The position numbers were made by a program, and so were the translations under genes. The notes beneath the pieces were generated by a model. That model saw nothing but the letters and a program-made list of their open reading frames with translations. It was not told the origin of the DNA and searched no databases. A stretch of DNA of 54,722 nt from Alphaproteobacteria bacterium (GTDB lineage Bacteria > Pseudomonadota > Alphaproteobacteria > Rhodospirillales > Magnetospirillaceae): contig JADGAL010000001.1 in assembly GCA_015232025.1 (NCBI GenBank), forward strand, positions 1 through 54,722, in the 5' to 3' direction. Every line of letters starts with the position of its first letter. The stretch's first letter is position 1. This document shows, piece after piece, positions 4,482-44,936 of this stretch.

Positions 4482-4482
4482 C

Positions 4483-5868
4483 TCATCCTCCCGCGCCGAG
4501 GCCGCGCAACGCTTGGCGGATATCTTCGGGCCGTGGCCTGGGGCCAAGCGGCACCAGGCCGGGGCCGGCCGGAACGTCGGCGAACACCACGGCGGAGCGG
4601 CCACGCGCCTCGGCCACGAAGCCGGCCGCCGCCGCCGCGTCGTCGGTGATCCAAAGAGTGGCGCCCTCGCCATCGCCATCGACCAGCGCGTAGCCCATGG
4701 CGCGCAGCACGCCCCCGACATAGGTGCGGATGCGGGCGTCGGGCAGGGCGACATGGGCGGTGCGGTCCTCTTGCCGCGCCGCCGGATCGGTGGCGGTGCG
4801 CAGCAGCAGCGTGAACACGGTGCCCAGGCCCGGCGCCGATTGGATCTCGATCGAACCGCCCGATTGCTTCACCATGCCATCCACCAGGGCGAGCCCCATG
4901 CCGGTCGAGATGCCGCGGGTCTTGGTCGTGAAGAACGGTTCCAGGCAGCGGCGCATCACCTCGCGCGTCATGCCCGGCCCGTCATCGGCGACCGAAAGCC
5001 GGGCCAGCCCGCGCTCGGCGGCCGACAGCCGCACCGTGACGGTTCCCGCGCCGCCCTCGCGCATCGCCTCGCCCGCGTTCTGCACCAGGTTGAACACCAC
5101 CTGGGTCAGCCGATGGCGGGCGATCGCCAAGCGGGGCGGGTCGTCCGGGAACTCGCGCGCCAGTTCGACGCGGCGCGGCAGGCCGTTGCGGAGCACCGCC
5201 TCGGAGTCGGCCCACCATTCCAGCGGATCGAGATTGTCGCCGCACAGCGCGTTTTGATCGGGGTCGAGCGACAGCAGCCGCAGCCCGTTGGTCAATCGTT
5301 GCAGCAACTCGACCGATTTGCGGATCACCCGCAAATCGTCGCGCATCGGGTCGGGAATGCCGCGCGCCTCGATGGTGTCCAGGCGCACCCGCACCGGCAG
5401 CAACAGGTTGCCCATGTCGTGGCCCAACCCCGCCGACAGACAGCCCAGAGCCGCCATACGGTCCAGCCGCGCCTGCGACATCTCCCCGTCGCGCCCGTCC
5501 AAGTCGCGCTCGGCCTCGACGCGGGGGTGGATGTCGACCGAGGCTCCAAACCATCTGACGATCCGACCGGCCCCGTCGCGCTGGGCGACGGCGCGCGACA
5601 AGTGCCAGCGATAGGCGCCGTCATGGCGGCGCAGGCGATGTTCGAGGTCTTCCATGGCGCCGTCGGCGAGGGCGTGGCGCCATTTGCTCAGGGTCCGCTC
5701 GCGGTCCTCGCGATGAATGACCGACTGCCAGCCCCAGCCCAGCAAAGCGGCACGCCGCGCGCCGCTGAAGGTGGCGCCGCTTCGATTGCAGTAGTCGACC
5801 GAGCCATCCGGCGCGGCCGTCCACAGAATCGACGGTACGACTTCCGCGAGGGCCTCGAACCAGCCCAT
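4483..5868 (-). CDS. PAS-domain sensor histidine kinase with a receiver-like C-terminal tail
   Basis: ATG 5868 with GGGAGGGAG upstream. PAS (ILWTAAPDGSVDYCNRS...YRWHLSRAVAQRDGAGRIVRWFGASVDI), H-box GLGHDMGNLLLPV, N/G boxes FNLVQNAGEAM, DDGPGM, GMGLALV. About 110 extra C-terminal residues. Confidence 0.8.
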   Translation of the reverse strand: MGWFEALAEVVPSILWTAAPDGSVDYCNRSGATFSGARRAALLGWGWQSVIHREDRERTLSKWRHALADGAMEDLEHRLRRHDGAYRWHLSRAVAQRDGAGRIVRWFGASVDIHPRVEAERDLDGRDGEMSQARLDRMAALGCLSAGLGHDMGNLLLPVRVRLDTIEARGIPDPMRDDLRVIRKSVELLQRLTNGLRLLSLDPDQNALCGDNLDPLEWWADSEAVLRNGLPRRVELAREFPDDPPRLAIARHRLTQVVFNLVQNAGEAMREGGAGTVTVRLSAAERGLARLSVADDGPGMTREVMRRCLEPFFTTKTRGISTGMGLALVDGMVKQSGGSIEIQSAPGLGTVFTLLLRTATDPAARQEDRTAHVALPDARIRTYVGGVLRAMGYALVDGDGEGATLWITDDAAAAAGFVAEARGRSAVVFADVPAGPGLVPLGPRPRPEDIRQALRGLGAGG

Positions 5869-17474: not shown

Positions 17475-19088
17475 TCAGCCGATCGCCAATCGCGCCCGGT
17501 GGGGCGCCAGGAAGGACGGGGTGCGCGACTTCGGCACCCTTAGGATGAAATTGTGCCGGGCGACGTGGTAGCTGGGATCGAAGCCGTAGAAGTTCAGCTT
17601 CATGCGGTCCAGTTCCTCGGCGCGGTAGGCGGCGAGCGGTTTTTCGGCCTCGTCCTCGCGGCGGCCGCGGGCCTTTTCGTATAAGCGGTGGCCGATGTCG
17701 AGATCGTTGGCCAATTCGGTGGCGCCGCTCCGCACCGCCTGTTCGAAGCCGTCGCGGTCGAGGCGGGCGTCGATCAGGCCCAAGGCCAGCGCCTCGTCGG
17801 TGCCGACCGGCAGGCGGGCCTGGGTGATGCGTTGGGCGCGCTCGGGGCCGCAGCGGCGCGGCAGCAGATAGGTCCAGTATTCCGAGCCGTACAGGTTGCC
17901 CATGCCCTTGTAGTGCGGGTTGAGGACCACGCCGTCCCTTGCCCACACCGCGTCGGCGGCCAGCGCCAGGAACACGCCGCCCGCCCCGGCGTTGCCGCCT
18001 AGGGCGGCGATCACCCAGCGATCGGTGGTCTCGATGATCGCCTGGGCGAGGTCGTCCATCGCCTGGATGTTGCGCCAGGATTCGTCGGCCGGGCTGTCGG
18101 CCGCCTCGATGGTGGCGAGGTGGATGCCGTTCGACCAGAAATCCGGTCCGCCCATCAGCACCAACACGCGGGTGTCGCGCGTCAAGGCGGCGCGCCACGC
18201 GGCGAGCAGGCGTTCGCATTGCTCGGTGCTCATCGCGCCATTGTGGAAGGGGAAGTGGAGGTAACCGACCGCCCCGTCCTCCTCGTACCACAGGTCGCGC
18301 CAGCCGGGGATTTCCGGCAACTCGGCGCCCAGCGCCTTGGCGGCCGGCAGCTTCAGGCCATCGGCGCCCCGCACCCGGCCCAGCCACACCGCGCCGTCCC
18401 TGGTGGCCCGCGCCACCGCGTCGCCCGAGCGGGCCAGCAGGGCGCCCGGCTCTCCCCCCAGCCCCTCGGCCGGGCTGGCGTCGAACAGGTGGCCGAGCGG
18501 ATCGCGCAAACCGGGATCGCCATCGGCCGAGCGGATCTTGCGCAGCACGGTGGCGGTGTCGTCGCGCGTCCAATCGATGGCGCGGTCGGCTTGGCGGCAG
18601 GCCGGACGCATCGGCGCGAGCGGCACCCGGCACGGACGGGGGGAACCCGACAGCGCCTCGCGCACGCACTGGACCGCCGCCTCGGCGATTTCGTGGCGGT
18701 ACAGGCTGGATTTGGTCGCCTCGCGCATCGGGAAGCGGGCCGAGGCCCAGACCGGGCCGGCATCCATCTCGGCCTCGGCCTGCAGCAGGGTGACCCCCCA
18801 CTCGGCGCGGCCCTCCAGGATCGCCCAGTCGAGCGCCGACGGCCCGCGATCGCCCTCGGGGCCGGGATGGACCACCAGACAGGTGCGCTCGCGCCACAGC
18901 GCCTCGGGGATGGCGCGCTTGAGGAACGGCGCGATCACCAGATCGGGGCGGCACAGCGCCACCGCTTCCAGGGTGGTGGCGTCGTTGACGTCGAATTCGA
19001 CGAACACCTCGTGGCCCATGTCGCGCAGCTCGACGAACAGGCGTTGGGCCAGCGAGTTGAAGGCGTGGGTGAGCAGCAGGACGCGCAT
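17475..19088 (-). CDS. hypX: hydrogenase maturation factor HypX/HoxX (formyltransferase-like N-domain plus crotonase-like C-domain)
   Basis: ATG 19088 (MRVLLLTHAFNSLAQRLFVEL) is 2 nt after the hypE stop. N-terminal Fmt-like fold (LVIAPFLKRAIP, VVHPGPEGDRGPSALDWAI). C-terminal enoyl-CoA-hydratase-like (VLVLMGGPDFWSNGIHL, GGNAGAGGVFLALAAD). The upstream 123 codons of the track ORF are not coding. Confidence 0.85.
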   Translation of the reverse strand: MRVLLLTHAFNSLAQRLFVELRDMGHEVFVEFDVNDATTLEAVALCRPDLVIAPFLKRAIPEALWRERTCLVVHPGPEGDRGPSALDWAILEGRAEWGVTLLQAEAEMDAGPVWASARFPMREATKSSLYRHEIAEAAVQCVREALSGSPRPCRVPLAPMRPACRQADRAIDWTRDDTATVLRKIRSADGDPGLRDPLGHLFDASPAEGLGGEPGALLARSGDAVARATRDGAVWLGRVRGADGLKLPAAKALGAELPEIPGWRDLWYEEDGAVGYLHFPFHNGAMSTEQCERLLAAWRAALTRDTRVLVLMGGPDFWSNGIHLATIEAADSPADESWRNIQAMDDLAQAIIETTDRWVIAALGGNAGAGGVFLALAADAVWARDGVVLNPHYKGMGNLYGSEYWTYLLPRRCGPERAQRITQARLPVGTDEALALGLIDARLDRDGFEQAVRSGATELANDLDIGHRLYEKARGRREDEAEKPLAAYRAEELDRMKLNFYGFDPSYHVARHNFILRVPKSRTPSFLAPHRARLAIG

Positions 19089-19090
19089 GG

Positions 19091-20122
19091 TCAGCAAATC
19101 CGCGGCAGTTGCTCGCCGGCCAGCCAGTCGACGATGCGGGTGCCGCCGAAGGCCGTCTCCATCTGCACGAAATGGTGCGGGTCCTCGACCACCGCGCCGA
19201 TCATCGCGGCGTCGCGGCCCAGCGGATGGGCGCGCATCACGGCGAGCAGGCGCGGGGCGTCCTGGGCGGCGCAGATGGCGATCAGCTTGCCCTCGTTGGC
19301 GACGTAAAGCGGATCGAGCCCCAGCAATTCGCAGGCGCCACGCACCGAATCGCGCACCGGGATGGCGGCCTCGCGGATCATCATGCCGACCCCCGACTGG
19401 ACCGCCAGTTCGTTGAGCGTCGAGGCCAGCCCGCCGCGGGTCGGATCGCGCAGGCAATGGAGGTCCCGCACCGCCTCGACCATCGCCGCGACCAGCCCGT
19501 GCAGGGCCGCCGAGTCCGACAGCAAATCGGTCTGGAAGCTGAGATTCTCGCGCTTCGACATCACCGCCACGCCATGATCGCCCATCGTGCCGCTGATCAG
19601 GATGGCGTCGCCCGGCCGCGCCCGGTCGCCCGAGATGGTCACGCCCTCGGGCACCACGCCGATCCCGGTGGTGGTGATGAACACGCCGTCGCCCTTGCCC
19701 TTCTCGACCACCTTGGTGTCGCCGGTGACGATCGGCACCCCCGCCTCGCGCGACGCCGCCGCCATGCTTTCGACGATGCGGCGCAGGTCGGCAAGCGGCA
19801 AACCCTCCTCGATCACGAAGGCCGCCGACAGGGCCACCGGCCGCGCCCCGGCCATCGCCACGTCATTGATGGTGCCGTGAACCGCCAGCGAGCCGATGTC
19901 GCCGCCGGGAAAGAACAGCGGCGAGATCACGTAGCCGTCGGTGCTCATCACCACCCGCCCGGCCGGCATCGCCAAGCACGCCTGGTCATTGCGCTGGCGC
20001 AGGAAATCATTGTCGAAGGCGGCCAGGAACAGTTCCTCGACCAATTGCTGCATGGCCCGCCCTCCCCCGCCATGGGTGAGGTCGACACGGCCATTGCGGA
20101 AGTCGAGGGAGCGGGACGTCAT
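19091..20122 (-). CDS. hypE: hydrogenase maturation protein HypE
   Basis: 343 aa with a PurM-like fold. Ends with the diagnostic C-terminal PRIC. ATG at 20122. Confidence 0.95.
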   Translation of the reverse strand: MTSRSLDFRNGRVDLTHGGGGRAMQQLVEELFLAAFDNDFLRQRNDQACLAMPAGRVVMSTDGYVISPLFFPGGDIGSLAVHGTINDVAMAGARPVALSAAFVIEEGLPLADLRRIVESMAAASREAGVPIVTGDTKVVEKGKGDGVFITTTGIGVVPEGVTISGDRARPGDAILISGTMGDHGVAVMSKRENLSFQTDLLSDSAALHGLVAAMVEAVRDLHCLRDPTRGGLASTLNELAVQSGVGMMIREAAIPVRDSVRGACELLGLDPLYVANEGKLIAICAAQDAPRLLAVMRAHPLGRDAAMIGAVVEDPHHFVQMETAFGGTRIVDWLAGEQLPRIC

Positions 20123-21601: not shown

Positions 21602-22699
21602 TCAGGACAGGGCGTGAAGACCGGCGATCCAGGCTTGGCCCAGGCTGACCGCCGGATCGCCCGGCGAGGCGAGCAGCGGGCGCAGCACCCGGACGCCGCG
21701 GGACCGCAGGGCCGGCGGCAAGCTCGCCCCCAGCACCTTGTTGAAGAAACACCCGCCGCCCAGGGCGACGGTCGCCACGCCGGTTTCGGCGGCGGCCTCG
21801 GCCACCCACTCGGCCAAGGCGGCGGACAGGGTGCCATGAAACAGATCGGCGCCCTCGGCCGGATCGGCAAGGTCGGCGAGATGGGCGAGCAACGGCAGCG
21901 TATCGAGCACGCCCGCCTCGATCGACCAGCTTCCGTACAGCACCCGCGGCACCCGCACCATGGCCTCCAGCGCCATCGGCGCCTGGCCCTCGAAATCCGC
22001 GACCGGATGCACGCCCAGCAGCCCGCAGGCGGCGTCGAACAGCCGCCCGCACGAGGTGGTCGGCGGGCTGTTCACCCCCTTGTCGATCACCTCGGCCAGC
22101 AGGGCCGCCGCGCGGAACTGTGCGAATCGACTGGCGATCTCGGCGCCGCGCGCCATGCGGTGGAGCGCCGCCGCCGCCATCCGCCACGGCTCGCGCGCCG
22201 CCAGATCGCCGCCGGGTTGGCGCAGCGGCGCCAAGTGACCGAGGCGGCGCCACTCCGGCCCATCGACCAGCAGCAACTCTCCCCCCCAGGATTCGTTGCC
22301 CGGCCCCAGCCCGAAGCCATCGAGCGACAACCCGAGCACCGGCCCGAGATGGCCGTTCTCGGCGGCCACGGCGGCGGCGTGGGCGTGGTGGTGCTGCACC
22401 GCCAGGATGGGCAGGCCGCTCGCTCCGGCCCAACGGGTGGAGTGGAAATCGGGGTGCAGATCGTGGGCGACCAGCACCGGCTCGGCGCCGACCGCGTCCT
22501 TCAGGCGCGCGATGGCGTGCTCGAAGGCGGCGATGGCGGCGGCGGTGTCGAGATTGCCGCAGGGCGCGCTGACATAGGCGCGGTCGCCCGCCGTCAGGCA
22601 GACGGTGTTCTTGAGAAAGGCCCCGACCGCCAGCACGCAAGGCACCGCCTTAGGCAGCACCACTTCCAGTTCGAAGGCGTAACGCGGCGCTCCATCCAT
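21602..22699 (-). CDS. hypF: short HypF: Kae1/ASKHA-like carbamoyltransferase domain only
   Basis: 365 aa. VLAVGAFLKNTVCL, VAHDLHPDFHST, VQHHHAHAAAV, ESWGGELL, GGGCFFNKVL align to the C-terminal half of HypF. ATG 22699 lies 6 nt after the hypB stop, leaving no room for acylphosphatase, Zn-finger or YrdC-like domains. Confidence 0.8.
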   Translation of the reverse strand: MDGAPRYAFELEVVLPKAVPCVLAVGAFLKNTVCLTAGDRAYVSAPCGNLDTAAAIAAFEHAIARLKDAVGAEPVLVAHDLHPDFHSTRWAGASGLPILAVQHHHAHAAAVAAENGHLGPVLGLSLDGFGLGPGNESWGGELLLVDGPEWRRLGHLAPLRQPGGDLAAREPWRMAAAALHRMARGAEIASRFAQFRAAALLAEVIDKGVNSPPTTSCGRLFDAACGLLGVHPVADFEGQAPMALEAMVRVPRVLYGSWSIEAGVLDTLPLLAHLADLADPAEGADLFHGTLSAALAEWVAEAAAETGVATVALGGGCFFNKVLGASLPPALRSRGVRVLRPLLASPGDPAVSLGQAWIAGLHALS

Positions 22700-22705
22700 C
22701 CCGGA

Positions 22706-23584
22706 TCAGTCCTCGATGCTTTGACGCACGGCCCGCAGCTTGGCTTCCAGCGACGCCGCGCGCCGGGCCAGCGCCGTCTTGCGGCCGGCGGCGATCCAGT
22801 CCAGCCAAGCGTCGAAGCCCTGCCGCGTCTTGGCCGACAACTCGATCACTTTGATCCCCGGATTGACCTGCCGGGCATAGCCCACGCAGCGCGCCACATC
22901 GAAATCGAGATGGGGCAGCAGGTCGATCTTGTTCAGGATCATCAGGCCGGCGGCATGGAACATGTCGGGATATTTCAGCGGCTTGTCTTCGCCCTCGGTG
23001 ACCGACAGCACCACCACCTTGGCGTCCTCGCCCAGATCGAAGGCGGCGGGGCAGACCAGATTGCCGACATTCTCGACGAACAGCACGCCCTCCTCGGGCG
23101 GACCCAGCCGGTCGAGCGCGTGGCCGACCATATGGGCGTCGAGATGGCAGCCCTTGCCGGTGTTGACCTGCACGGCCGGCGCGCCGGTGGCGCGGATGCG
23201 GTCGGCGTCGAAGCTGGTCTGCTGATCGCCCTCGATCACCGCGACGGGAAAGCGGCCCGACAGCGCGCCGATCGTCTCGACCAGCAGCGTCGTCTTGCCC
23301 GAGCCGGGGCTGGAGACCAGGTTCAGCGCGAACACCCCCGCCTCGGCGAGGCGCTGGCGGTTGGTGGCCGCCAAGGCGTCGTTGTGTCCTAAGATGTCCT
23401 TCTCGATCTGCACGATGCGCTTTTGGCTAAGGCCGGGGACGTGGACCCCCGCCAGCCCGGCGCCCCAATGCTGGTGGTCGTGGTCGTGGTGATGATCGTG
23501 GTCGTGGTCATGGTCATGGCCGTGGTCGTGACCATGATCGTGGGAATGCCCGTGCGTGTCGCCGCAGCCGCAGACCGTGCACAT
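22706..23584 (-). CDS. hypB: hydrogenase nickel-incorporation GTPase HypB with a His-rich tract
   Basis: MCTVCGCG N-terminal metal site. [29 protein letters not shown] tract. P-loop [21 protein letters not shown] 23584 overlaps the hypA stop (ATGA). Confidence 0.9.
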
Positions 23585-23925
23585 CACTCGACCTCCATTT
23601 CCTTGACCCGCATTTCCTCGCCGCCGATCACCTGAAGCTGATGACCGCCGCAGTGTGGGCACGCGTCGTAACGCTGGGCCACCGCCACCTCGACCCCGCA
23701 CGGCAGACAGAACGCCCGGCCCGGTGGGCGCAAGATCTCCAACACCGCGCCCTCGGCGATGGTGCCGCCCTTGATCGCCTCGAAGCAGAAGCGCATCGAT
23801 TCGGGATCGACCTGGGAAAGCTCGCCGATTTCCAGCACCACCGCCTTGACGCGGGCGAAACCCTGCGAGGCCGCCTGATCGTCCAGGATGCGGAATACGC
23901 CTTCGGTGAGGGACATCTCGTGCAT
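23584..23925 (-). CDS. hypA: hydrogenase nickel-insertion protein HypA
   Basis: 113 aa. MHEMSL N-terminus. Zn site CLPCG...CPHCGG. Confidence 0.9.
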
Positions 23926-23986
23926 GGCCGAATGGTAGCCAATCCGAGGGGCTTAGGGGAACGGGAATCAGGCGTTCACAAAGCCG

Positions 23987-24352
23987 CTAGTGCGGAAGGA
24001 CCTCGAAAACCACTTCGGCGGCGATATCGACCGCTTCCTTGGCGTGGCCCGCCGTGAAGGAGCGATCCAGGTGGTAATCGGCGATGATCCGGAGCGCTCG
24101 CAGTCTGGGAAGGGCACCGTAGCCCAATCGCCGCAGCGTCTGATCGCTCGATTGCTTGAGAAACTCGATCAGACCCTGATGATCCTTTCCACTGTGATCC
24201 GGCCTGAACTCCGCCATGCACGGATGGAGTCTCACATGATGATGCGCGGCGCGGTAAGCCGCACCCGCGGCAATTCTGGCGCGCGGCTCGGAAACGGCCG
24301 CGGCGATCATCGCGCCGGCCTCCTCCAGTATATCCTCAGGAGCGACCGCCAC
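23987..24352 (-). CDS. small HEPN-like protein (R-x5-H motif)
   Basis: 121 aa from GTG 24352, or 107 aa from ATG 24310, which has GGAGGAGG 8 nt upstream. All-helical pattern: AAGAAYRAAHHHV, GKDHQGLIEFL, LRALRIIADYHLDRSFTAGHAKEA. Low-GC relative to flanks. Confidence 0.55.
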   Translation of the reverse strand: MAVAPEDILEEAGAMIAAAVSEPRARIAAGAAYRAAHHHVRLHPCMAEFRPDHSGKDHQGLIEFLKQSSDQTLRRLGYGALPRLRALRIIADYHLDRSFTAGHAKEAVDIAAEVVFEVLPH

Positions 24353-25076
24353 GGTGCGGCACTCCCGTCGGCCCGTGCGCCGTATGGCTCATTACCAGCG
24401 TGACCAACGGCAGCGCATCCTGCGGTTGCCCGAATTCCGCCGCGACCTTCGCGGTCGCCTCGTCGATCACCTCCTCGAGCTTGCGGCGATAGGCGCGATC
24501 CCCCTTCACATAGATCATGAAAATGCTGCCCACGGCATCGCCCACCGATTCGGCAAAGTCGATGTCGAGTTGCACGTCCGCGACGACCTCCCGGATCGCC
24601 CTTTGGTGGGCGAGGAAGTGGTCATGGCGGCCAAGGAGGTATTCGGCGGTGTCGTGTACATGTCCGGGGCCTGGAAAAAAGCTGCGCAGCAGCTTCGCAT
24701 CGCCAAGGCCTACCGCCGCCTTGATACGACCCGTCGCGACATCTTCGGCGTCTTGCAAATCATTGGCCAAGAGGATGGCATCCTCGTACAAGCCAACGCA
24801 CAGCAGATTTTGCCAAAATGACATCGCCAGTTGCGAGTCCATTTGGCGCCACCAATGGATTAAGTCGGTGGCCTCCATGCGGGCCTCGGATGCTTCGCCC
24901 GCGCAGATCAAACAATGAAGATACGCCACGGCCGTCTGCAAATCGGCCGGCATCTTCCGCCTGTCGATCTTCAGGCGCCACAGCATCTTCCCAATCTCCT
25001 CGGTCTCGGACCAAGGCAAAGCGATCAGCCGGTTGTACTCCTCCAACGCCCGCTTGGCGGGGGCAGGGGCAACCAT
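24336..25076 (-). CDS. hypothetical protein, no family recognised (partner of the HEPN-like ORF)
   Basis: ATG 25076 with GGAGG at a 6-nt spacer. The track start at 25133 is a TTG and is less likely. 246 aa: helical TPR-like N-terminal half, alpha/beta-looking C-terminal half. No NTase, HTH or hydrogenase-accessory motif seen. Low GC (52-57% in sampled lines). Confidence 0.55.
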   Translation of the reverse strand: MVAPAPAKRALEEYNRLIALPWSETEEIGKMLWRLKIDRRKMPADLQTAVAYLHCLICAGEASEARMEATDLIHWWRQMDSQLAMSFWQNLLCVGLYEDAILLANDLQDAEDVATGRIKAAVGLGDAKLLRSFFPGPGHVHDTAEYLLGRHDHFLAHQRAIREVVADVQLDIDFAESVGDAVGSIFMIYVKGDRAYRRKLEEVIDEATAKVAAEFGQPQDALPLVTLVMSHTAHGPTGVPHRGGRS

Positions 25077-25149
25077 TGATGACCTCCACGCTGATGCAAT
25101 TCTCATCAAAGCAGGTCGAGGCCGGCCCGTCAACGCGGCATGGCGACTG

Positions 25150-26154
25150 TCATACCCCCTCCACCACCACCTCGCATCCCACGCAGGGATCGAGCGCCAG
25201 CACGGCCAAGCGCGCCAGGAACACCGGATCGCCGCCGGCCGGGCCGATCAGGCCGCGGGCCAGGGGGCCATCGGGGGCGAAGTTGATTTCGGGGGGGGCC
25301 TCGACCCGCCAAGCCATGATGCGGCCGTCCGTCAGGGTGACGTGGTGCGACAAGGCGCCGCGCGCCGCTTCGAGGGTGGCGTGGCCGGGGCCGTCGCCGT
25401 GCGGGGGCGCGGGCCAGCCGGGATCGGGGTTGAGGACGATGCGGTCCATCTCGGCCAGACATTCGTCGAGATCGGCCAAACGGGCGACCAGCCGGGGCAG
25501 TACGCCGTTGCCGTGGCGGGCGACCAGCGGGGCGACCAGGGGATGGTCGCGGCGGCGGGCGAAGGGGCCGGTTTCGGGTGGTTCGGGGTGGCTGCGGCAG
25601 AGGTCGGCGAGGCCGCGTTCCTTGACCACGCGCGGCAGCGAGGGATCGGCGATGGCGGCGCGCGCCGCCGCACGGACGGCGGTCAGGCAGGCGGCGATCA
25701 CGCCCGCGTCGGGATCGAGGCGGCCGCCGCCCGGCGCCGCCCAGTCGTCATCGGGGTACAGCGCCTTGCGCAATGGGGACAGCGCGCCGCGTAGCGCGCG
25801 GATGCCCTCGGCGCGGATCGGTTCGCCCAGCAGGGCGGGCCAGTCGCGCAGGATGCGCACCCCATGCTCGCCCACCGTCTCGGCGAGCAGCAGCAGGCGG
25901 CGGGCGGCCAATTGGGCGGGCGACGGGCGGATGCCCAGGGCCGCCTCGCAGGCGCCCAGGCCGGCTTGAAGCTGGGCGGTGCCGCACAGCGAGAACATCA
26001 AGGGCACGAGGCGCAGGGCGTCGGCGATCGGCTTGCCGACCAGGGCGGAGGCGGCGTCGAGAGGGCGGTCGTTGGCGATGGTCACCGCGTCGATGCGGCC
26101 TTGGACGATCCGCAGGCGGACGGTCAGGCCGCCCTCCAGCGCGGCCAAGCTCAT
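25150..26154 (-). CDS. hupK: HupK/HoxV-like large-subunit-related scaffold protein
   Basis: 334 aa from ATG 26154, which overlaps the upstream stop (ATGA). MFSLCGTAQ takes the place of the large-subunit RxCGxC motif. C-terminal LDPCVGCEV resembles DPCxxC. Confidence 0.7.
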   Translation of the reverse strand: MSLAALEGGLTVRLRIVQGRIDAVTIANDRPLDAASALVGKPIADALRLVPLMFSLCGTAQLQAGLGACEAALGIRPSPAQLAARRLLLLAETVGEHGVRILRDWPALLGEPIRAEGIRALRGALSPLRKALYPDDDWAAPGGGRLDPDAGVIAACLTAVRAAARAAIADPSLPRVVKERGLADLCRSHPEPPETGPFARRRDHPLVAPLVARHGNGVLPRLVARLADLDECLAEMDRIVLNPDPGWPAPPHGDGPGHATLEAARGALSHHVTLTDGRIMAWRVEAPPEINFAPDGPLARGLIGPAGGDPVFLARLAVLALDPCVGCEVVVEGV

Positions 26155-26381
26155 GCGGCGGCGCCGGCCAGCACGTCGGCGAGCACGGCCAGCGCCTCCT
26201 CGGCTTGATCGGCCGGCACCTTCTCGGCGGCGAAACCGCCGGCTTGGACCAGCACGTAATCGCCGGGCGCCACCGCCTCGTTCAGCAGCATCAGGCTGAC
26301 CACGCGGGTTTCGCCGAAGCATTCCACCGTGGCGTTGCCGTTCTCGATGGTCTGGATGCGGGACGGGATGGCCATGCACAT
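26151..26381 (-). CDS. HypC-family chaperone, second copy (HybG/HupF-like)
   Basis: 76 aa. MCMAIPSRI (Cys2). GDYVLVQAGGFA. Confidence 0.85.
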   Translation of the reverse strand: MCMAIPSRIQTIENGNATVECFGETRVVSLMLLNEAVAPGDYVLVQAGGFAAEKVPADQAEEALAVLADVLAGAAA

Positions 26382-26384
26382 GGA

Positions 26385-26867
26385 TCAGGCGCCCTTGCGC
26401 GTGGCGGTGAAGCCTTGGCCCTCGATCTCTTCGATGATCAGGGCGATCACCTCGTCGATCTTGGCCTCGACCTCGGGCGACAGGGCCATGTTGGTGCCCA
26501 GGGTGACCGGCTGCACGCCGACCAGGGCCAGCGAGACGGGTTGCTCGTCGGTCAGGATCAGCGTCGCCAGCACGTCGGACAGCCCGATTTGATGGGGCGA
26601 CAGCTTGGTCTTGAAGAAGGCCGGCACCTCGTCGCCGGTCAGCTTGAACACCGTGCCGGGCGGGCGGTGGGCGCGCACCGCGTCGACCACCACCAGATGC
26701 CCGGCGCCCGCGATGTGGTCGAGCAGTTCCATCCCCATGGTGCCGCCGTCGATCACCTTGACCTCGGGCGGCAGGGTCCAGCGTTCGACCAGGGCGTCGA
26801 CGGCGCGCACGCCGATCCCTTCGTCCGAGAGCAGGATGTTGCCGATACCAAGAACGACCACCTTCAT
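26385..26867 (-). CDS. hybD: hydrogenase maturation endopeptidase (HybD/HupD family)
   Basis: MKVVVLGIGNILLSDEGIGVRAV, DGGTMGMELL, VVVDAV, SPHQIG. Confidence 0.9.
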   Translation of the reverse strand: MKVVVLGIGNILLSDEGIGVRAVDALVERWTLPPEVKVIDGGTMGMELLDHIAGAGHLVVVDAVRAHRPPGTVFKLTGDEVPAFFKTKLSPHQIGLSDVLATLILTDEQPVSLALVGVQPVTLGTNMALSPEVEAKIDEVIALIIEEIEGQGFTATRKGA

Positions 26868-26928
26868 CGGACCCCCGCGCGCCAGGAAAAAAGGAACCAC
26901 GGAGAGTAGCCGCTCCGTGGTTCGTGGG

Positions 26929-28629
26929 TCAAAGAGCCTTCACCTGAACCACCGAATCATGTTCGAGATCGGTGACGTGGACCGCGCAGGCCAGGCACGG
27001 GTCGAACGAGTGGACGGTGCGCAGAACCTCCAGCGGCAATTCGGGATCGGCCACCGGATTGTCCATCAGCGCGGCCTCGTAGGGGCCGATGGCGTCGTCC
27101 TCGTTGCGCGGCGCGGCGTTCCAGGTGGTGGGCACCACCGCCTGATAGTTGGTGATCTTGCCGTCATTGATGACGCACCAATGCGACAGCACGCCCCGCG
27201 GCGCCTCGTGGAAGCCGACGCCCTGGATTTCGCCCTTGGGGAAGGTGGGCTTGTTGAAGGTCTTGACGTCGCCCTTGCCGATATTGTCGATCAGGGCCAT
27301 CCAGTTCTTCTGCAAGACCTCGTGCAGCACCGCGCAACGCACCGCGCGGGCGGCGTGGCGGCCGATCGTCGAATGCACGCCGGCCAGCGGGATCTTGGTG
27401 CCGGCCAAGCTGCCCGCCGTGTCGAGCACCAGATTGAGATAGGTCAGGGTCGGCTGGTGGCCGGCCGCCGCCATCGCCAGCACGTTGGCCAGCGGCCCGA
27501 CCTGCTGCGGCTTGCCGTAGAAGGTCGGCGACTTCACCCAGGAATACTTCTCGTTGTCCTTGAAGTCGGTGTATTGCGGCACCGTCTCGCCCTTGTAGGG
27601 GTGCAAGGCGCCCTTGCCACCCTGATACCAGCTATGCTTGACGCTTTCCGCCACGCCGTCGCGGAAATAGGCGTCGTTGAAGCTTTTGATCGGCTTGTAG
27701 CCGGCGAGATCGCCCTTGGTGATCTGGCCGCCGGGCAGATCGAACATGGTGCCCTTCTCGTCGGTCGGGAAATCGGGCACCGACAGGTAGTCGGTGATGC
27801 CCGCGCCGTGGCCCAGCCAATCGGCGTAGAAGGCGCCGATCGCCGAGACGTCGACCAGATAGACGTTGCGGATGAAATCGCCCAATTGGTCGATCATCTG
27901 CTTGATCATCATCAGGCGCTCGATCGACAGCACCGACTGGCTGTCGGTCGAGATCGGATTGGAGACGCCACCCACCGCCATGTTCTGCACATGCGGGCTT
28001 TTCGAGCCCAGGATGCCGACGATCTTGTTGGCGTAGCGCTGCACCTCGAGGGCCTGGAGGTAATGCGCCACGGCCAGCAGGTTCACCTCGGGGGTGAGCT
28101 TCATCGCCGGATGGCCCCAATAGCCGTTGGCGAACACGCCAAGCTGCCCGGTGCCGACGAAGCCGGCCAGACGCTCCTTGACGGCGCGCATGGCGTGCTT
28201 CGAGTTGCCCGGCCAGGACGACAGCGTCTCGGCCAGCGCGGCGGTCTTGTCGGGATCGGCCTTCAGCGCCGAGACCACGTCGACCCAGTCGAGCGCCGAC
28301 AGGTGATAGAAGTGCACGATATGATCGTGGATGGCGTGCGCCGCCGAGATCATGTTGCGGATGTATTGGGCGTTCAGCGGCACCGGAAGCTGCAACGCGT
28401 TCTCGACCGCGCGCACCGAGGTGATGGCGTGGACGGTGGTGCAGACGCCGCAGATGCGCTGGGTGATGGCCCAGGCGTCGCGGGGGTCGCGGCCGAGCAG
28501 GATCTGCTCGACGCCGCGCCACATCTGGCCCGAGGACCACGCCTTGGACACCTTGCCGTTGTTCACCTCGACGTCGATGCGCAGATGGCCTTCGATGCGG
28601 GTGATGGGATCGATGGTGATTCTGGTCAC
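26929..28629 (-). CDS. hybC: [NiFe]-hydrogenase large subunit
   Basis: GTG start with AAGGAGAG upstream. ITIDPITRIEGHLRI, RICGVCTTVH, and C-terminal DPCLACAVH followed by a 15-residue extension for protease cleavage. Confidence 0.95.
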   Translation of the reverse strand: MTRITIDPITRIEGHLRIDVEVNNGKVSKAWSSGQMWRGVEQILLGRDPRDAWAITQRICGVCTTVHAITSVRAVENALQLPVPLNAQYIRNMISAAHAIHDHIVHFYHLSALDWVDVVSALKADPDKTAALAETLSSWPGNSKHAMRAVKERLAGFVGTGQLGVFANGYWGHPAMKLTPEVNLLAVAHYLQALEVQRYANKIVGILGSKSPHVQNMAVGGVSNPISTDSQSVLSIERLMMIKQMIDQLGDFIRNVYLVDVSAIGAFYADWLGHGAGITDYLSVPDFPTDEKGTMFDLPGGQITKGDLAGYKPIKSFNDAYFRDGVAESVKHSWYQGGKGALHPYKGETVPQYTDFKDNEKYSWVKSPTFYGKPQQVGPLANVLAMAAAGHQPTLTYLNLVLDTAGSLAGTKIPLAGVHSTIGRHAARAVRCAVLHEVLQKNWMALIDNIGKGDVKTFNKPTFPKGEIQGVGFHEAPRGVLSHWCVINDGKITNYQAVVPTTWNAAPRNEDDAIGPYEAALMDNPVADPELPLEVLRTVHSFDPCLACAVHVTDLEHDSVVQVKAL

Positions 28630-28640
28630 GGCGACTCTCC

Positions 28641-29831
28641 TTATTCAGCAGCAACGGCCGCCGCGACGGCGGGCTCGGACTTGTTCGGATGCAGGACGGG
28701 CAGAACCCGGACGAGCACGATGTAGGCCAGCACCTCGAAGGCGATCAGGCCGATGGTGACCATCAGTTCGGGCAGCGACGGGAAGTAGGTCCAGCCGGCC
28801 CCCGTCTGATAGGCGACCAGGAAGCCGTCCATCCGGTACAGCCCGCCGCCCAGCAGCATGGAGACCGCGCCGATGAACAAACAGCGCGCCCGATTGCGCC
28901 GCGCCCCCTGGAGCAACAGAAGCGGCAGGGCGAAGAAGGCGATTTCCAGCCAGAACATCAGCGACAGGAAACCGCTGGAGAACGCCAGCCCCAGCTTGCC
29001 CGACACCGCGAGGTCGCCGAAGCGGACCACCAGATAGGCCGCCAAGAGCCCGTTCATCACCGAGGCGATGCCGGCCAACAGCCGCGTCTCGGATTTGAGC
29101 CGAAAGCCGCTGGTCGCCAGGGTGGATTCGAACACCACCACCGCGAAGCCCATGGCGATCGCCGAAAGCAGGAACAACAGCGGCAGCAACGGCGTCTGCC
29201 ACAGCGGATGGATCTGATGGCCGAACACCACCAGAAGCGAGCCCAGCGAGCTTTGATGCATCGAGGGCAGCAGCACCCCTAAGCCGATGAACGCGAACAT
29301 CAGCCGCTCGACCAGGGTCTTCATGCCGGTCCAGCCGAAGCGGTCGAAGAAGGCCGGCGAGAACTCGACCCACATCACCATGATGTAAAGCGAGATGCAG
29401 ACCGCCACCTCGAACATCACCGAGTCGGGGTGGGCGAGGCCCGGCGTGAAGATGTGGTAGAAGTTCCAGTAGCGGCCCAGGTCGAACATCACCGACGCGC
29501 CGCCCAGCGTATAGCCGAACAGGCTGGCCAGCAGGGCCGGGCGGACCAGCGGGTGATAGCGCCCCTTGTTCATGATGTAGACCAGCAGCGCCATCGAATA
29601 GCCGCCGCAGGCCAGCGCCGTGCCGATCACCACGTCCCAGGCGATCCACACGCCCCAGGGGAAGCCGTCATTGATGTTGGTGACCGCCCCCAGGCCGAAG
29701 ATGAACCGCTTGGCCAGGATATAGACGGCGATCGCCGACAACAGCGCGCAGATCACGGTGACCGGGGTCACCAGACTACCGCCCAGCGGAGCCGGACGGT
29801 GGGCCGGGGAGAGGGGTTTCTGGATGCTCAT
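28641..29831 (-). CDS. hybB: HybB/NrfD-type integral membrane subunit of the hydrogenase
   Basis: ATG 29831 (MSIQKPL). Many hydrophobic segments. NINDGFPWGVWIAWDVVIGTALACGGY is typical of the NrfD/PsrC family. Sits between the hybA-like and large-subunit genes. Confidence 0.85.
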   Translation of the reverse strand: MSIQKPLSPAHRPAPLGGSLVTPVTVICALLSAIAVYILAKRFIFGLGAVTNINDGFPWGVWIAWDVVIGTALACGGYSMALLVYIMNKGRYHPLVRPALLASLFGYTLGGASVMFDLGRYWNFYHIFTPGLAHPDSVMFEVAVCISLYIMVMWVEFSPAFFDRFGWTGMKTLVERLMFAFIGLGVLLPSMHQSSLGSLLVVFGHQIHPLWQTPLLPLLFLLSAIAMGFAVVVFESTLATSGFRLKSETRLLAGIASVMNGLLAAYLVVRFGDLAVSGKLGLAFSSGFLSLMFWLEIAFFALPLLLLQGARRNRARCLFIGAVSMLLGGGLYRMDGFLVAYQTGAGWTYFPSLPELMVTIGLIAFEVLAYIVLVRVLPVLHPNKSEPAVAAAVAAE

Positions 29832-29836
29832 GGCCC

Positions 29837-30805
29837 TCACTCCTCGTCCTGATGGTTCTTGCTGGCGCGCCAAGCCAGCGCCACCAGCCCGCCCAGCGCC
29901 ACCACGGGGGCGATCAGCCCGCCATAAAGGGTGTGCTGGATGGTCTCGGAGATGCTGGAATAGGAGCGTTCGGGCAGTTCCGGCATGCCCAGCGCGACGA
30001 AGGGAACGCCGGACAGCATCATCATCTGGGTGCCGCCCAATTCCTTCTCGCCATAGACGTGGTCGACATAGCGCGGCGCCTTCTTCTCGTGGGTATCGCC
30101 CGAGCCGACGCGCTGGCGCTCATAGGCCACCATCTCGCCGGGCTTGGCGGCGCGGCGCCGGGCGATCTCGCCCTTGATCTGCTCGACGGTGCCGAACAGG
30201 GTGGCGCCCGTCGGGCATTTCTCGGCGCAGGCCGCGATCTTGCCCTCGGGCAGGCGGTGGCGGCACAACTCGCATTTGCCGATCTTGGGCTTGGGCGTGT
30301 CGTACTGGAAGCGCGGCACGCCATAGGGACAGGCGGCGACGCAGTAGCGGCAGCCGATGCAGCGGTCGGCGTCGTAGGAGACGATGCCGTTCTCGGCGTT
30401 CTTCTCCATCGCCGAGACCGGACAGGCCGACACGCAGGACGGATCGACGCAGTGCAGGCACGACCGCTTGACGAAGGCGTGGCCGTCCTTGAGCTGGTCC
30501 TTGTTCTCGCCGTTGCCGTCCTTGTACATCTTGATGACGTTGAAGGTGTAGGCCGAGATGTCGAGCGGCGTGTCCCACAGCTTCTCGTCGGTCGAAAAGA
30601 CCGGCGACAGGTCGTTGGCCTCGCGGCATGCCACCACGCAGGCCTTGCAGCCGACGCACAGCGTCGCGTCGTACAGGAGACCGATCGCCTTGGGCGGCAT
30701 CTCCAGATTGGGCCGCGCGAGCGCGGGGTCGGCCACGCCGGTCGTCGCCAGCACGGCGCCGCCCCCCGCGGCGGCCTTGAGGAAGTTGCGTCTCGATATG
30801 GTCAT
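29837..30805 (-). CDS. hybA: HybA-type Tat-exported 4Fe-4S ferredoxin subunit
   Basis: Tat signal MTISRRNFLKAAAGGGAV. Cys clusters CVGCKACVVAC, CLHCVDPSCVSACP, CIGCRYCVAACP, CELC...CAEKCP. C-terminal TM helix. Confidence 0.9.
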   Translation of the reverse strand: MTISRRNFLKAAAGGGAVLATTGVADPALARPNLEMPPKAIGLLYDATLCVGCKACVVACREANDLSPVFSTDEKLWDTPLDISAYTFNVIKMYKDGNGENKDQLKDGHAFVKRSCLHCVDPSCVSACPVSAMEKNAENGIVSYDADRCIGCRYCVAACPYGVPRFQYDTPKPKIGKCELCRHRLPEGKIAACAEKCPTGATLFGTVEQIKGEIARRRAAKPGEMVAYERQRVGSGDTHEKKAPRYVDHVYGEKELGGTQMMMLSGVPFVALGMPELPERSYSSISETIQHTLYGGLIAPVVALGGLVALAWRASKNHQDEE

Positions 30806-30814
30806 GGCGCGCCC

Positions 30815-31951
30815 CTATTCGTCGGCCTGATCCGGGTCGTCCCGCTTGCCCAGGTTGCGGGCGATGACGGCGCCCGCCCCCGCCGCCGCGCCGGCGATGC
30901 CGACCAGCGTCGCGGTCGAGGCGAAGTCGGCGCCCTTGCCCTGCTCCTCGACGATGCGGGGATAGCTGACGGGCGGCACCACGGTCTTGACGTCGGCCAG
31001 TTCGTGGATGCCCTTGGCGAAGCCGATGCCCTTCTCGGTGCAGCCGATGCAGGGATGGCCCGTTCCCACCGGCCACGAGCCCGAACCGACATCGCCGAAC
31101 AGGATGCTGGGGCAGTTGGCGTAGGTTTCGGGGCCTTTGCAGCCCAGCTTGTAAAGGCAATAGCCCTTGCGGTGGCCGTCGTCGCCGAATTCCATGGCGA
31201 AGCGGCCGGCGTCGTAATGGGCGCGGCGTTCGCAATTCTCGTGGACCAGCCGGCCATAAGCGAATTTCGGCCGGCCCAGATGGTCGACCTCGGGCAGCTT
31301 GGCGAAGGTCAGGAAATGCACGACCGTCGACAGGAAGTTGTAGGGATTGGGCGGGCAGCCGGGGATGGTGACGACCGGCTTGCCCAGCACCTCGGCGACG
31401 CCCGACGAGCCGGTCGGGTTGGGCTTGGTCGACGGCATGCCGCCCCACGAGGCGCACGAGCCGATGGCCACCACGGCGGCGGCGTCGGCCGCGCATTCCT
31501 TGAGCAGCTCCAGCGCCGTCTTGCCGCCGATCTTGCAGTAGATGCCGCCGTCCTTGGTCGGGATGGCGCCCTCGACGACCAACAGGTACTTGCCCTTGTG
31601 CTTGGCCATCGCCGCATGGCGCGCCGCCTCGGCCTGGTGCCCGGCCGCCGCGAACAGGCTTTCGTGGTAGTCGAGCGAGATCACTTCGAGGATCAGCTTC
31701 TCGATGGTCGGGTGCTCGGCGCGCAGCAGCGATTCCGTGCAGCCGGTGCATTCCTGGAAATGCAGCCAGATGACGCTGGGGCGCTCCTTGGTGGCGACCG
31801 CCTGGGCGATCGCCGCCTCGGCACCGGCCGGCAGCCCCATGGTGGCCGCCATCGCGGTACAGAACTGCAGGAAGTTGCGGCGCGACATGCCCAGCTTCCT
31901 CTCGATGACATCGAGGCCGGCGTCGTCCTCTCTCGCGCTGTCGTCGTACAT
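30815..31951 (-). CDS. hybO: [NiFe]-hydrogenase small subunit
   Basis: ATG 31951 (MYDDS...) is preferred. Twin-arginine SRRNFLQF. WLHFQECTGCTES, GSCASWGG, GCPPNP. C-terminal hydrophobic anchor. The upstream 44 codons of the track ORF are unlikely to be coding. Confidence 0.9.
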   Translation of the reverse strand: MYDDSAREDDAGLDVIERKLGMSRRNFLQFCTAMAATMGLPAGAEAAIAQAVATKERPSVIWLHFQECTGCTESLLRAEHPTIEKLILEVISLDYHESLFAAAGHQAEAARHAAMAKHKGKYLLVVEGAIPTKDGGIYCKIGGKTALELLKECAADAAAVVAIGSCASWGGMPSTKPNPTGSSGVAEVLGKPVVTIPGCPPNPYNFLSTVVHFLTFAKLPEVDHLGRPKFAYGRLVHENCERRAHYDAGRFAMEFGDDGHRKGYCLYKLGCKGPETYANCPSILFGDVGSGSWPVGTGHPCIGCTEKGIGFAKGIHELADVKTVVPPVSYPRIVEEQGKGADFASTATLVGIAGAAAGAGAVIARNLGKRDDPDQADE

Positions 31952-32078
31952 GCTGAACCCCTTTCTGTCGCCCCGGCGGCGGCCGAGGGCCCCAAATTTC
32001 AAAACCAATGTGGCGGGATCGATGCGATTCCCTCCCGATGCGGCCGTTTGTCCGGCCACCTCATTTTGCCGCTCCATA

Positions 32079-32094
32079 CGCAAACGGCATGCCG
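32079..32094 (-). promoter_or_regulatory. candidate sigma-54 (-24/-12) promoter for the hydrogenase operon
   Basis: The minus strand reads cGGCATG-ccgt-TTGCg against consensus TGGCACG-N4-TTGCW, with correct GG...GC spacing. About 130 nt upstream of the small-subunit ATG. No enhancer-binding activator gene is present in the window. Confidence 0.3.
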
Positions 32095-32299: not shown

Positions 32300-32683
32300 A
32301 TGCTGATCACTTGGACGGAAGACTACGCCACGGGGCACCGCGAGATCGACGCCGACCATCGCCGCATCGCCGATCTGGTCAACATGATGAACGACCGCAT
32401 GCAGTCGGCGCCCGACGCGATCGACGAGGCGTTCCGCACCCTGGAAAGCTATGTGGCGACGCATTTCGAGCGCGAGGAACGGCTGATGGCCGAATGGGCC
32501 TATCCCGGACTGGCCGAGCAGAAGACCGAGCACGCCGCGCTGATCCGCGAACTCCAATCGATAGGCAAGACGCTCGGCCGCGACGAAATGGCCGTCTCGC
32601 GGCTGGTGATGTTTCTGGCGAAGTGGTGGGCCGCCCATATCGGGCGCAGCGACATGAAGTACGTGCCCTACATCAAAAAATGA
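32300..32683 (+). CDS. bacteriohemerythrin-like metal-binding protein
   Basis: MLITWTEDYATGHREIDADHRRIADLVN...HFEREERLM...EHAALI...WWAAHIGRSD carries the His/Glu/Asp ligand pattern of hemerythrin. Confidence 0.85.
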   Translation: MLITWTEDYATGHREIDADHRRIADLVNMMNDRMQSAPDAIDEAFRTLESYVATHFEREERLMAEWAYPGLAEQKTEHAALIRELQSIGKTLGRDEMAVSRLVMFLAKWWAAHIGRSDMKYVPYIKK

Positions 32684-44295: not shown

Positions 44296-44589
44296 ATGCC
44301 AACCCGCAACGTGGTCCTGACCAACCAACAAGCCGCGCTGATCGAAAGGTTGGTGTCGTCCGGCCGCTATCAGAACGCCAGCGAGGTTCTAAGGGACGGG
44401 CTTCGCCTGGTCCAGAACCGCGAATCGGAGGACGAGGCCCGCTTGGCCGCCCTTCGCGATGCCGCGCGGATCGGCATCGCCGACATCGAGGCGGGACGCT
44501 TCCTCACCTTTGAAACCCCCGCCGATCTGGCCCGACATCTGAACGTGCTGACCGATGAGGCCCTCGCGGGCGACGCGGACCCGGAGTGA
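44296..44589 (+). CDS. parD: ParD-family (ribbon-helix-helix) antitoxin
   Basis: MPTRNVVLTNQQAALIERLVSSGRYQNASEVLRDGLRLV matches the ParD/COG3609 N-terminus. Its stop overlaps the toxin GTG (GTGA). Confidence 0.85.
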   Translation: MPTRNVVLTNQQAALIERLVSSGRYQNASEVLRDGLRLVQNRESEDEARLAALRDAARIGIADIEAGRFLTFETPADLARHLNVLTDEALAGDADPE

Positions 44590-44936
44590 AGAAACGTGTT
44601 TGGCCGATCCGGCTGACCCGAGCGGCGAGCGCGGACTTCCGGAACATCGTGCGATGGACGACCGATCGCTTCGGCCACGCCCAAGCGCGGGCCTACGCCG
44701 CCATCCTGCGGGCCGCCATGGAGGCACTTGCGGAAGGGCCGCGCGTCGTCGGGGCCAAACCCCGAGACGATGTCGGAAAGGGGCTGTTCACCTTGCATGT
44801 CGCCCGATGCGGGAACAGGGGCCGGCATATCCTTGTGTTCCGGCCGAGTGCCACCGAGATCGAGATATTGCGTCTGCTCCACGACGCGATGGACCCGATC
44901 CACCACCTTGCCGGCTCGATGAACGTGGAGGAATAG
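44586..44936 (+). CDS. parE: ParE/RelE-family toxin
   Basis: 116 aa. IRLTRAASADFRNIVRWT...GRHILVFRPSATEIEILRLLHDAMD is the typical ParE pattern. Confidence 0.85.
   Translation: MKKRVWPIRLTRAASADFRNIVRWTTDRFGHAQARAYAAILRAAMEALAEGPRVVGAKPRDDVGKGLFTLHVARCGNRGRHILVFRPSATEIEILRLLHDAMDPIHHLAGSMNVEE

Follow-up and report, generated by a model that had tools for sequence, protein, structure and literature searches.

The locus described here raises the question whether two genes that separate hupK from hypA in a hydrogenase operon belong to hydrogenase maturation or form a foreign module lodged within it. It lies in a genome of the Magnetospirillaceae (Alphaproteobacteria, Rhodospirillales; assembly GCA_015232025.1, contig JADGAL010000001.1), of which positions 1 to 54,722 were analysed; this 54.7-kb stretch is referred to as the window. 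On its minus strand, 1,224 nt separate the stop codon of hupK (25150) from the ATG of hypA (23925), and the gap is filled by two same-strand open reading frames (ORFs), a larger one encoding a 246-aa protein (the partner) and, downstream of it, a smaller one encoding a HEPN-like protein. Together they are called the cassette.

We lean towards the view that the cassette is a self-contained mobile module of a HEPN effector and a repeat-protein partner, of the toxin-antitoxin or abortive-infection type, which sits in a cargo slot at the hupK-hypA junction and has no dedicated role in hydrogenase maturation. The HEPN protein would be a ribonuclease-type (RNase-type) effector with an active site made up of R88 and an alternative upstream histidine, H58, instead of the canonical R-x4-6-H motif. 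The repeat protein would bind it and keep it inactive, as an antitoxin and/or by sensing a phage or stress trigger, and the HEPN protein, once released, would cleave RNA and so arrest growth. That the two proteins interact physically, and that the pair has RNase activity, toxicity and a function in defence, we infer from the evidence set out below.

Position and composition of the cassette

A sequence-only reading of the window had described the two ORFs in the 1.2-kb gap, and their coordinates, starts, GGAGG element and 17-nt overlap were all reproduced, as was every peptide motif that it had quoted; of its five hand counts of guanine-plus-cytosine (GC) content, three were exact and two were off by 1-2. 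The GGAGG at 25083-25087 precedes ATG 25076 of the large ORF with a 6-nt spacer. For the small ORF, an alternative ATG at 24310 is preceded by GGAGGAGG, and the N-termini of relatives speak for translation starts at ATG 25076 (large gene) and GTG 24352 (small gene). The overlap that results from these starts probably reflects translational coupling.

The GC content of the insert is 61.8%, compared with a window mean of 68.4% (standard deviation 2.4%, 1,224-nt stretches), which makes it the lowest-GC stretch of this length in the whole window; at third codon positions, the insert has 71-76% GC, as against 84-92% for the hup and hyp genes beside it. No promoter-like or terminator-like sites were detected on the coding strand, either inside the cassette or next to it, and neither flanking direct or inverted repeats nor att-like sites were found around it. 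As no terminator was found, co-transcription with the hup/hyp genes, which the sequence-only reading had proposed, is plausible, and the cassette is probably read through passively from the hydrogenase operon. In a sister metagenome-assembled genome (MAG) that carries the same cassette (GCA_015232435.1; locus L001), an extra segment of about 37 nt lies directly after the HEPN gene (L001:1355-1400) and contains a perfect 25-nt hairpin, ACGTGTAAGCCGGTCTTACACGT; the window lacks it. This hairpin may be a remnant of a cassette terminator, the loss of which in the window would favour read-through into hypA.

Gene pairing and mobility

Word-indexed searches returned only one or two relatives per cassette protein, and the family was revealed by exhaustive profile search, which yielded 188 representative clusters of the partner at an expectation value (E) of 1e-3 or below and 96 at 1e-10 or below (clustered at 50% identity). 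Nearly all of 150 listed representatives are 250-265 aa long, and those members that could be traced to an organism stem mostly from Rhodospirillales and other Alphaproteobacteria. Gene context was inspected at about 14 loci out of the 188 representatives; scans of genomes and metagenomes yielded only four and five loci, respectively.

The large gene and the HEPN gene are obligate partners, in many cases translationally coupled and in some fused. Of 14 informative loci, 13 have the HEPN gene directly 3' of the large gene and in the same orientation (the window, L001-L009, L011, L015 and L017), and the intergenic distance in these paired loci ranges from -20 to +48 nt. Natural fusion proteins that comprise both parts occur in two independent instances, represented by L013:75-1256 and L014:3527-4708 (393 aa) and by P0038 (351 aa), the latter with a decayed HEPN motif (RSLANQADD); P0091 (360 aa) also contains both parts and is apparently frameshifted. 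An apparent disruption of the pair at L010 was considered as decay and rejected, the cause being a scaffold gap.

More distant relatives of the small protein are encoded in a Klebsiella phage (MK416008; L018:1750-2866) and in Gloeothece plasmids (L019, L020), where the upstream genes differ from one another. The 245-aa gene upstream of the phage relative was rejected as a homologue of the partner family (hhalign probability 0.7%), and so were the upstream genes of the Gloeothece plasmids, which encode a third, unrelated protein of about 119 aa. It seems that the upstream partner of an AF0298-like HEPN gene can be exchanged.

The cassette is a horizontally mobile two-gene module. In all 13 paired loci its GC content is below that of the flanks, by up to 25 points. 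At L009 it is part of a prophage, flanked by a lysozyme/DUF29 region on one side and by the genes of the small and large terminase on the other, and a portal gene is close by; in Azospirillum oleiclasticum (L007) an IS4/5 transposase gene follows directly 3' of the pair. In L006, L008 and L003 the pair stands between unrelated housekeeping genes (for a CoA-binding protein, a GNAT acetyltransferase, an ABC-F ATPase and a patatin). Horizontal acquisition, as claimed in the sequence-only reading, is supported by this composition, by the prophage and insertion-sequence contexts, and by the alternative cargo of a sister genome described below. Directly upstream of the pair in the Rhodospirillales MAG of L006, positions 4431-4987 contain what appears by eye to be a frameshifted PIN/VapC-type toxin gene with the motif TLDTNVLVYALD, which has no Pfam match.

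The small protein as an AF0298-like HEPN domain

Profile evidence assigns the small protein to the AF0298-like HEPN-T (PF05168-type) domains. Searched alone against Pfam, the window protein scored 14.1 bits for HEPN (PF05168), with a gathering cut-off of 22; among its homologues, which are 38-48% identical, five pass this cut-off with 22.6-27.1 bits. A family profile of 12 sequences matched Archaeoglobus AF0298 (PDB 2hsb) at E 9e-5 and PDB 9xbd, entitled 'HEPN domain-containing protein', at E 2e-4, so that the claimed HEPN identity is borne out by the relatives and the family profile. The small protein and its relatives also match the phage family phrog_5176 over nearly their full length (E 1.7e-7 for the window protein, down to 7e-15). 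The AlphaFold2 (AF2) model of the small protein is all-helical with five helices (predicted local distance difference test (pLDDT) 88.5); Foldseek listed the sacsin HEPN domain and AF0298 among its best matches (template modelling score 0.45-0.54), in the company of generic four-helix bundles and at E 0.4-0.6, and a Foldseek search of BFVD with the same model gave no informative match. Scanning viral contigs with the small-protein alignment returned no match.

Thirteen residues are invariant in the 12 small proteins, namely R26, Y33, H43, H58, I62, K66, S68, G77, R83, R88, A91, Y93 and A111, and D92 is kept in at least 90% of the sequences. H58, which lies within the motif GKDHQGLIEFL highlighted in the sequence-only reading, aligns with the histidine of 'KTHRG' in AF0298, and L-R-x-x-A-D-Y is matched by 'LREESDY' in AF0298 and by 'LRNRSDY' in 9xbd. 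In the AF2 model, helices 22-42 and 71-92 are separated by a short helix that begins with H58; R88-Y93 are placed at the C-terminal end of helix 71-92. H94 is replaced by E, D, R or another residue, or is absent, in relatives; the R-x5-H pair (R88...H94), which the sequence-only reading had placed at the HEPN RNase motif, is thus not conserved, an outcome that this reading had itself named as refuting. Position 90, a histidine in many relatives, varies as well (H, Q, R, E, L, I, N).

According to Anantharaman et al. (2013; PMC3710099), AF0298-like HEPN-T domains (PF05168) keep the arginine of the motif and lack its histidine, often with D in its place, and arginine plus an alternative upstream histidine are proposed as the active site. 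The invariant R88, Y93 and H58 and the near-invariant D92 correspond to this published alternative site (PMC3710099).

The same residues bear on the reading that competes best with an effector, and which we consider rather unlikely: that the pair is a non-catalytic adaptor, whose HEPN domain has lost nuclease activity and, together with a TPR-like scaffold, serves only to bind nucleotides, RNA or protein. It could then be a 'moron' of prophages that has no toxin activity and acts in regulation, superinfection exclusion or anti-defence, in keeping with the moron-like position of the pair in the L009 prophage. The canonical histidine of R-x4-6-H is missing, its position being variable in the family; the fusion P0038 has a decayed motif; many HEPN domains are non-catalytic (PMC3710099); and neither cassette protein has a PADLOC match. 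These points are opposed by the dense invariant polar set R26, Y33, H43, H58, K66, S68, R83, R88 and Y93, which contains the arginine and the alternative histidine of the proposed active site, whereas only HEPN domains without conserved polar residues are termed 'inactive' in the same survey (PMC3710099).

The partner as a helical-repeat protein

No match to the 246-aa window protein was obtained in Pfam, NCBIfam or PADLOC. In an alignment of 62 family members, N15, L17, W33, L35, G60, A65, L91, G125 and R197 are near-invariant, and no catalytic-looking invariant set was found. The N-terminal part is predicted to be a TPR/PPR-like helical repeat, with the two types not distinguishable. Across the 62 members, Pfam assigned TPR_19 in 27, TPR_14 in 10 and PPR_long in one (E 3.8e-5), and the family profile matched the PDB entries of dPPR (E 5e-28), PPR10 (E 1e-12) and a plant mitoribosomal PPR protein (E 3e-6), in addition to TPR chains. 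The profile alignment has a repeat period of about 35 residues, with only about four to five repeats. The extreme PPR E-values arise because one profile segment of about 70 positions is summed over many identical tandem repeats; per stretch, PPR scores (16-19 bits) are no better than that of the consensus TPR protein CTPR3 (17 bits), and the partner was therefore labelled a TPR/PPR-like solenoid with a C-terminal domain of unassigned fold. The AF2 model of the whole partner has a mean pLDDT of 65.7, and its best Foldseek matches are TPR proteins at E 0.04-0.2. The C-terminal part contains the conserved pattern R-x-E-R-R-x-L-E-x-x-I-D and is not covered by any PDB or Pfam match.

For a HEPN protein in a two-gene operon, a minimal nucleotidyltransferase would be a familiar companion. 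The window partner has no Pfam or NCBIfam nucleotidyltransferase match, the family alignment has no conserved acidic dyad, and no nucleotidyltransferase family is among the best 25 of 32 Pfam families for the 62 members. Neither cassette protein matches the HyaE/HupG, HupH, rubredoxin or HybE families in Pfam or NCBIfam. The claim that the partner is neither a minimal nucleotidyltransferase nor a hydrogenase accessory protein is in agreement with these results.

If the solenoid were of the PPR type, the pair might be a two-component, sequence-selective RNase, in which a PPR-like binder of single-stranded RNA recruits specific transcripts for cleavage by the HEPN protein, much as in eukaryotic PPR-nuclease enzymes such as PRORP, and which might act on the mRNA of the surrounding operon. 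We regard this as improbable. The PPR matches of the family profile, the period of about 35 residues and the one member that matches PPR_long, which is the PRORP repeat region, speak for it; the inflation of these E-values by tandem repeats, the parity of PPR and CTPR3 scores per stretch, the preference of Pfam for TPR_19 over PPR (27 and 1 of 62), the TPR proteins that lead the Foldseek matches, and a repeat number of only about four to five speak against it. More doubtful still is its extension to a portable, 'programmable' two-protein RNase with the partner as RNA-recognition subunit, which possibly processes or regulates the mRNA of the hydrogenase operon.

The hupK-hypA junction as a variable slot

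Among the approximately 14 loci, the cassette is found at a hydrogenase locus only in the window and in the sister MAG of L001. A further sister MAG (GCA_015232055.1, contig JADGAJ010000414.1; locus L022) was retrieved by exact look-up of the window HypC, with an identical HypC and with hypA DNA 97% identical to that of the window; exact look-up of the window HypA gave no match. Immediately upstream of its hypA, L022:1-817 carries a RhuM-family gene (PF13310) with a GC content of 53.6%, compared with 69.7%; as the contig begins inside this gene, it covers only the hypA side of the junction. Upstream of the 47-nt block that precedes hypA (Table 1), the genomes diverge into a first cassette allele, a second cassette allele or the RhuM-family gene. 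Since the RhuM-family gene abuts the same block, that part of the hupK-hypA junction which lies next to hypA acts as a slot for variable cargo in this lineage.

Between the window and L001, the cassette has diverged far more than the hyp genes. The Hyp proteins are 97-100% identical, with synonymous divergence (dS) of 0.02-0.15, whereas the HEPN protein is 90% identical (dS 0.22) and the whole partner 73% (dS 0.77), dropping to 62% in partner residues 73-165 (dS 1.32, against about 0.1 in the flanks of this hot spot). Ratios of nonsynonymous to synonymous divergence (dN/dS) were 0.19-0.27 for the cassette, 0.26 for the partner gene and 0.23 for the hot spot. Values of about 0.25 indicate purifying selection on both cassette genes and hence that both are functional. 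Allele exchange or an older coalescence, and not relaxed constraint, is what the high dS points to; the central hot spot is suggestive of replaced alleles or of recombination inside the cassette. The evolution of the cassette is decoupled from that of the flanking hyp genes.

A lineage-specific pair for hydrogenase maturation that replaces HybE or HupG-J (HoxO-T), for instance with a TPR-like chaperone, is highly improbable: the pair does stand on the operon strand in two related genomes, with no terminator between it and the operon, and no HybE or HupG-J was noted among the scanned operon genes (no systematic search for them was made), yet neither protein matches an accessory family in Pfam or NCBIfam, none of 12 other loci (11 paired, one fusion; one of them in a prophage, several on contigs below 2 kb with little flanking sequence) adjoins hydrogenase genes, a RhuM-family gene takes the same place beside near-identical hyp genes, and the cassette is foreign in composition and decoupled from the hyp genes in divergence. 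Distribution, composition and the RhuM alternative essentially exclude an accessory role.

Weighing the proposed function

A mobile HEPN effector held by its repeat-protein partner fits into a known pattern, in that other HEPN genes share an operon with TPR/Sel1 repeat proteins or are fused to them (AbiU2, LA2681; PMC3710099, Table 1). The papers on AbiV and on DefensePredictor describe no HEPN system that matches the pair, and nothing relevant was found on HEPN proteins together with hydrogenase or hypA, on UPF0332 HEPN proteins, or on PDB 9XBD.

Several observations weigh against this proposal. The sample of inspected loci is limited, and at one of them (L016, a distant member) no HEPN gene follows in the approximately 200 nt of contig downstream, where a gene on the opposite strand is found. 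The window HEPN protein itself stays below the Pfam cut-off, its structural matches to HEPN domains are not significant, its family lacks the canonical catalytic histidine of R-x4-6-H, and for AF0298-type HEPN domains RNase activity is only predicted in the survey that proposed their active site (PMC3710099). The model of the partner is of low confidence, and the partner has no DNA-binding or enzymatic signature of the kind typical of antitoxins. A search of PADLOC-DB v2 gave no match for either cassette protein at E of 1 or below, and tblastn with the large protein gave no match among INPHARED phages and PLSDB plasmids.

Feature coordinates and neighbouring genes

Table 1. Features of the cassette and its borders in the window (aa, amino acids)
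Feature	Position	Strand	Remarks
hypA (flanking gene)	23584..23925	-	Pfam HypA E 8e-36; TIGR00100
Pre-hypA block, 47 nt	23926..23972	-	Right-hand border of the variable slot; identical in window, L001, L021 and L022
AF0298-like HEPN (PF05168-type) gene, predicted	23987..24352	-	121 aa; GTG at 24352
Codons of R83-L-R-A-L-R88-I-I-A-D92-Y93-H94	24071..24106	-	Position of the HEPN motif; R83, R88, A91 and Y93 invariant
Codons of D57-H58-Q-G-L-I-E-F-L-K-Q-S-S-D70	24143..24184	-	H58, candidate alternative catalytic His, invariant in 12/12
Overlap of partner and HEPN genes, 17 nt	24336..24352	-	Read directly in the sequence
Partner gene	24336..25076	-	246 aa; ORF with start codon, ATG at 25076; member of an unnamed family of ~255 aa
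C-terminal domain of partner, residues ~165-246	24339..24584	-	Near-invariant R197; AF2 low confidence
Divergence hot spot, partner residues 73-165	24582..24860	-	55-75% nucleotide identity to L001, 92-100% in flanks
TPR/PPR-like helical-repeat region of partner, residues ~6-164	24585..25061	-	Ten predicted helices; AF2 pLDDT ~65-88
hupK stop-cassette spacer, 73 nt	25077..25149	-	Contains GGAGG 25083-25087; ~95% identity to L001
hupK-like gene (flanking gene)	25150..26154	-	C-terminus matches NiFe large-subunit profiles; GC 75%

The hydrogenase system that flanks the cassette is Hyb-type, with hybO, hybA, hybB and hybC, a maturation protease gene, a HypC-like gene and the HupK-like gene on one side; downstream of the cassette follow hypA, hypB, a truncated hypF, hypC, hypD, hypE and a HypX-like gene. 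The structural genes at 25150-32083 are hydrogenase-2-like (hybO, hybA, hybB and hybC by NCBIfam), yet they are followed by the HupK-like scaffold gene, which is typical of oxygen-tolerant Hup/Hox systems. HypF (21602-22699, 365 aa) consists of the Kae1-like C-terminal domains only, without the acylphosphatase and zinc-finger N-terminus, and the operon ends with a fusion of a HypX-like formyltransferase and a crotonase (17475-19457); we take this arrangement of a short HypF with HypX to resemble the HypF1/HypX of Cupriavidus necator. Divergently adjoining the start of the operon is a bacteriohemerythrin gene (32300-32683, plus strand), which may be related to O2 sensing or protection. At 44586-44936 (plus strand), a ParE-family toxin gene (PF05016, E 2e-13) represents another toxin-antitoxin-type element in the window.

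Significance

The module family to which the pair belongs is uncharacterised and comprises about 190 representative clusters (50% identity). The linkage of HEPN genes to TPR/Sel1 repeat proteins is a known theme; what is new is the coupling of a non-canonical, AF0298-type HEPN protein to a repeat protein in place of the usual nucleotidyltransferase. Should the HEPN protein prove an active toxin, the pair would make the 'alternative histidine' HEPN site predicted in 2013 accessible to functional study for the first time, and would show a new way to neutralise or trigger a HEPN effector. For the annotation of hydrogenase operons, the variable slot implies that genes at the hupK-hypA junction in this lineage are not to be labelled maturation factors. 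A module of the toxin type in a maturation operon could still influence how hyp genes are expressed, through polarity or cleavage of mRNA, or stabilise the locus.

Comparison with known systems

With the AF0298-like HEPN-T proteins (PF05168; 2hsb, 9xbd), the small protein shares a length of about 120 aa, a predicted all-helical fold, the helix-2 motif S-R-A-Y-x-A-x-F and the L-R-x-x-x-D-Y segment with D-Y in place of the histidine. It differs from them in staying below the Pfam cut-off and in having I-I where most relatives have N-H or N-Q; moreover, classical members occur alone or paired with or fused to a minimal nucleotidyltransferase, whereas the window family is paired with a repeat protein of about 255 aa. 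The phage family phrog_5176, which lacks an annotated function, is matched by the small protein and its relatives, but in MK416008, the only sequenced phage in which a relative was detected, the upstream gene is a non-homologous one of 245 aa.

The HEPN-MNT (minimal nucleotidyltransferase) systems of the HepT/MntA type resemble the cassette in their two-gene operon with the partner upstream and HEPN downstream in overlapping or adjacent ORFs, in their mobile distribution, and in a tyrosine near the HEPN motif. In these systems the MNT antitoxin AMPylates the tyrosine of RX4HXY-type toxins. The window partner, unlike MNT, has neither a nucleotidyltransferase domain nor G-S...D-x-D, and the window HEPN protein lacks the histidine of RX4HXY; neutralisation by AMPylation is therefore not expected, and within the proposed toxin-antitoxin or abortive-infection logic the different partner would imply a different neutralisation chemistry.

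Neither window protein matches the Pfam models of AbiU2 or LA2681. AbiU2, with its Sel1-repeat gene, and LA2681, with TPR fused or in the same operon, nevertheless share with the cassette the combination of HEPN and an alpha-solenoid repeat in mobile or defence contexts (PMC3710099); they differ from it in having retained the canonical R-x4-6-H and in their membership of other HEPN clades.

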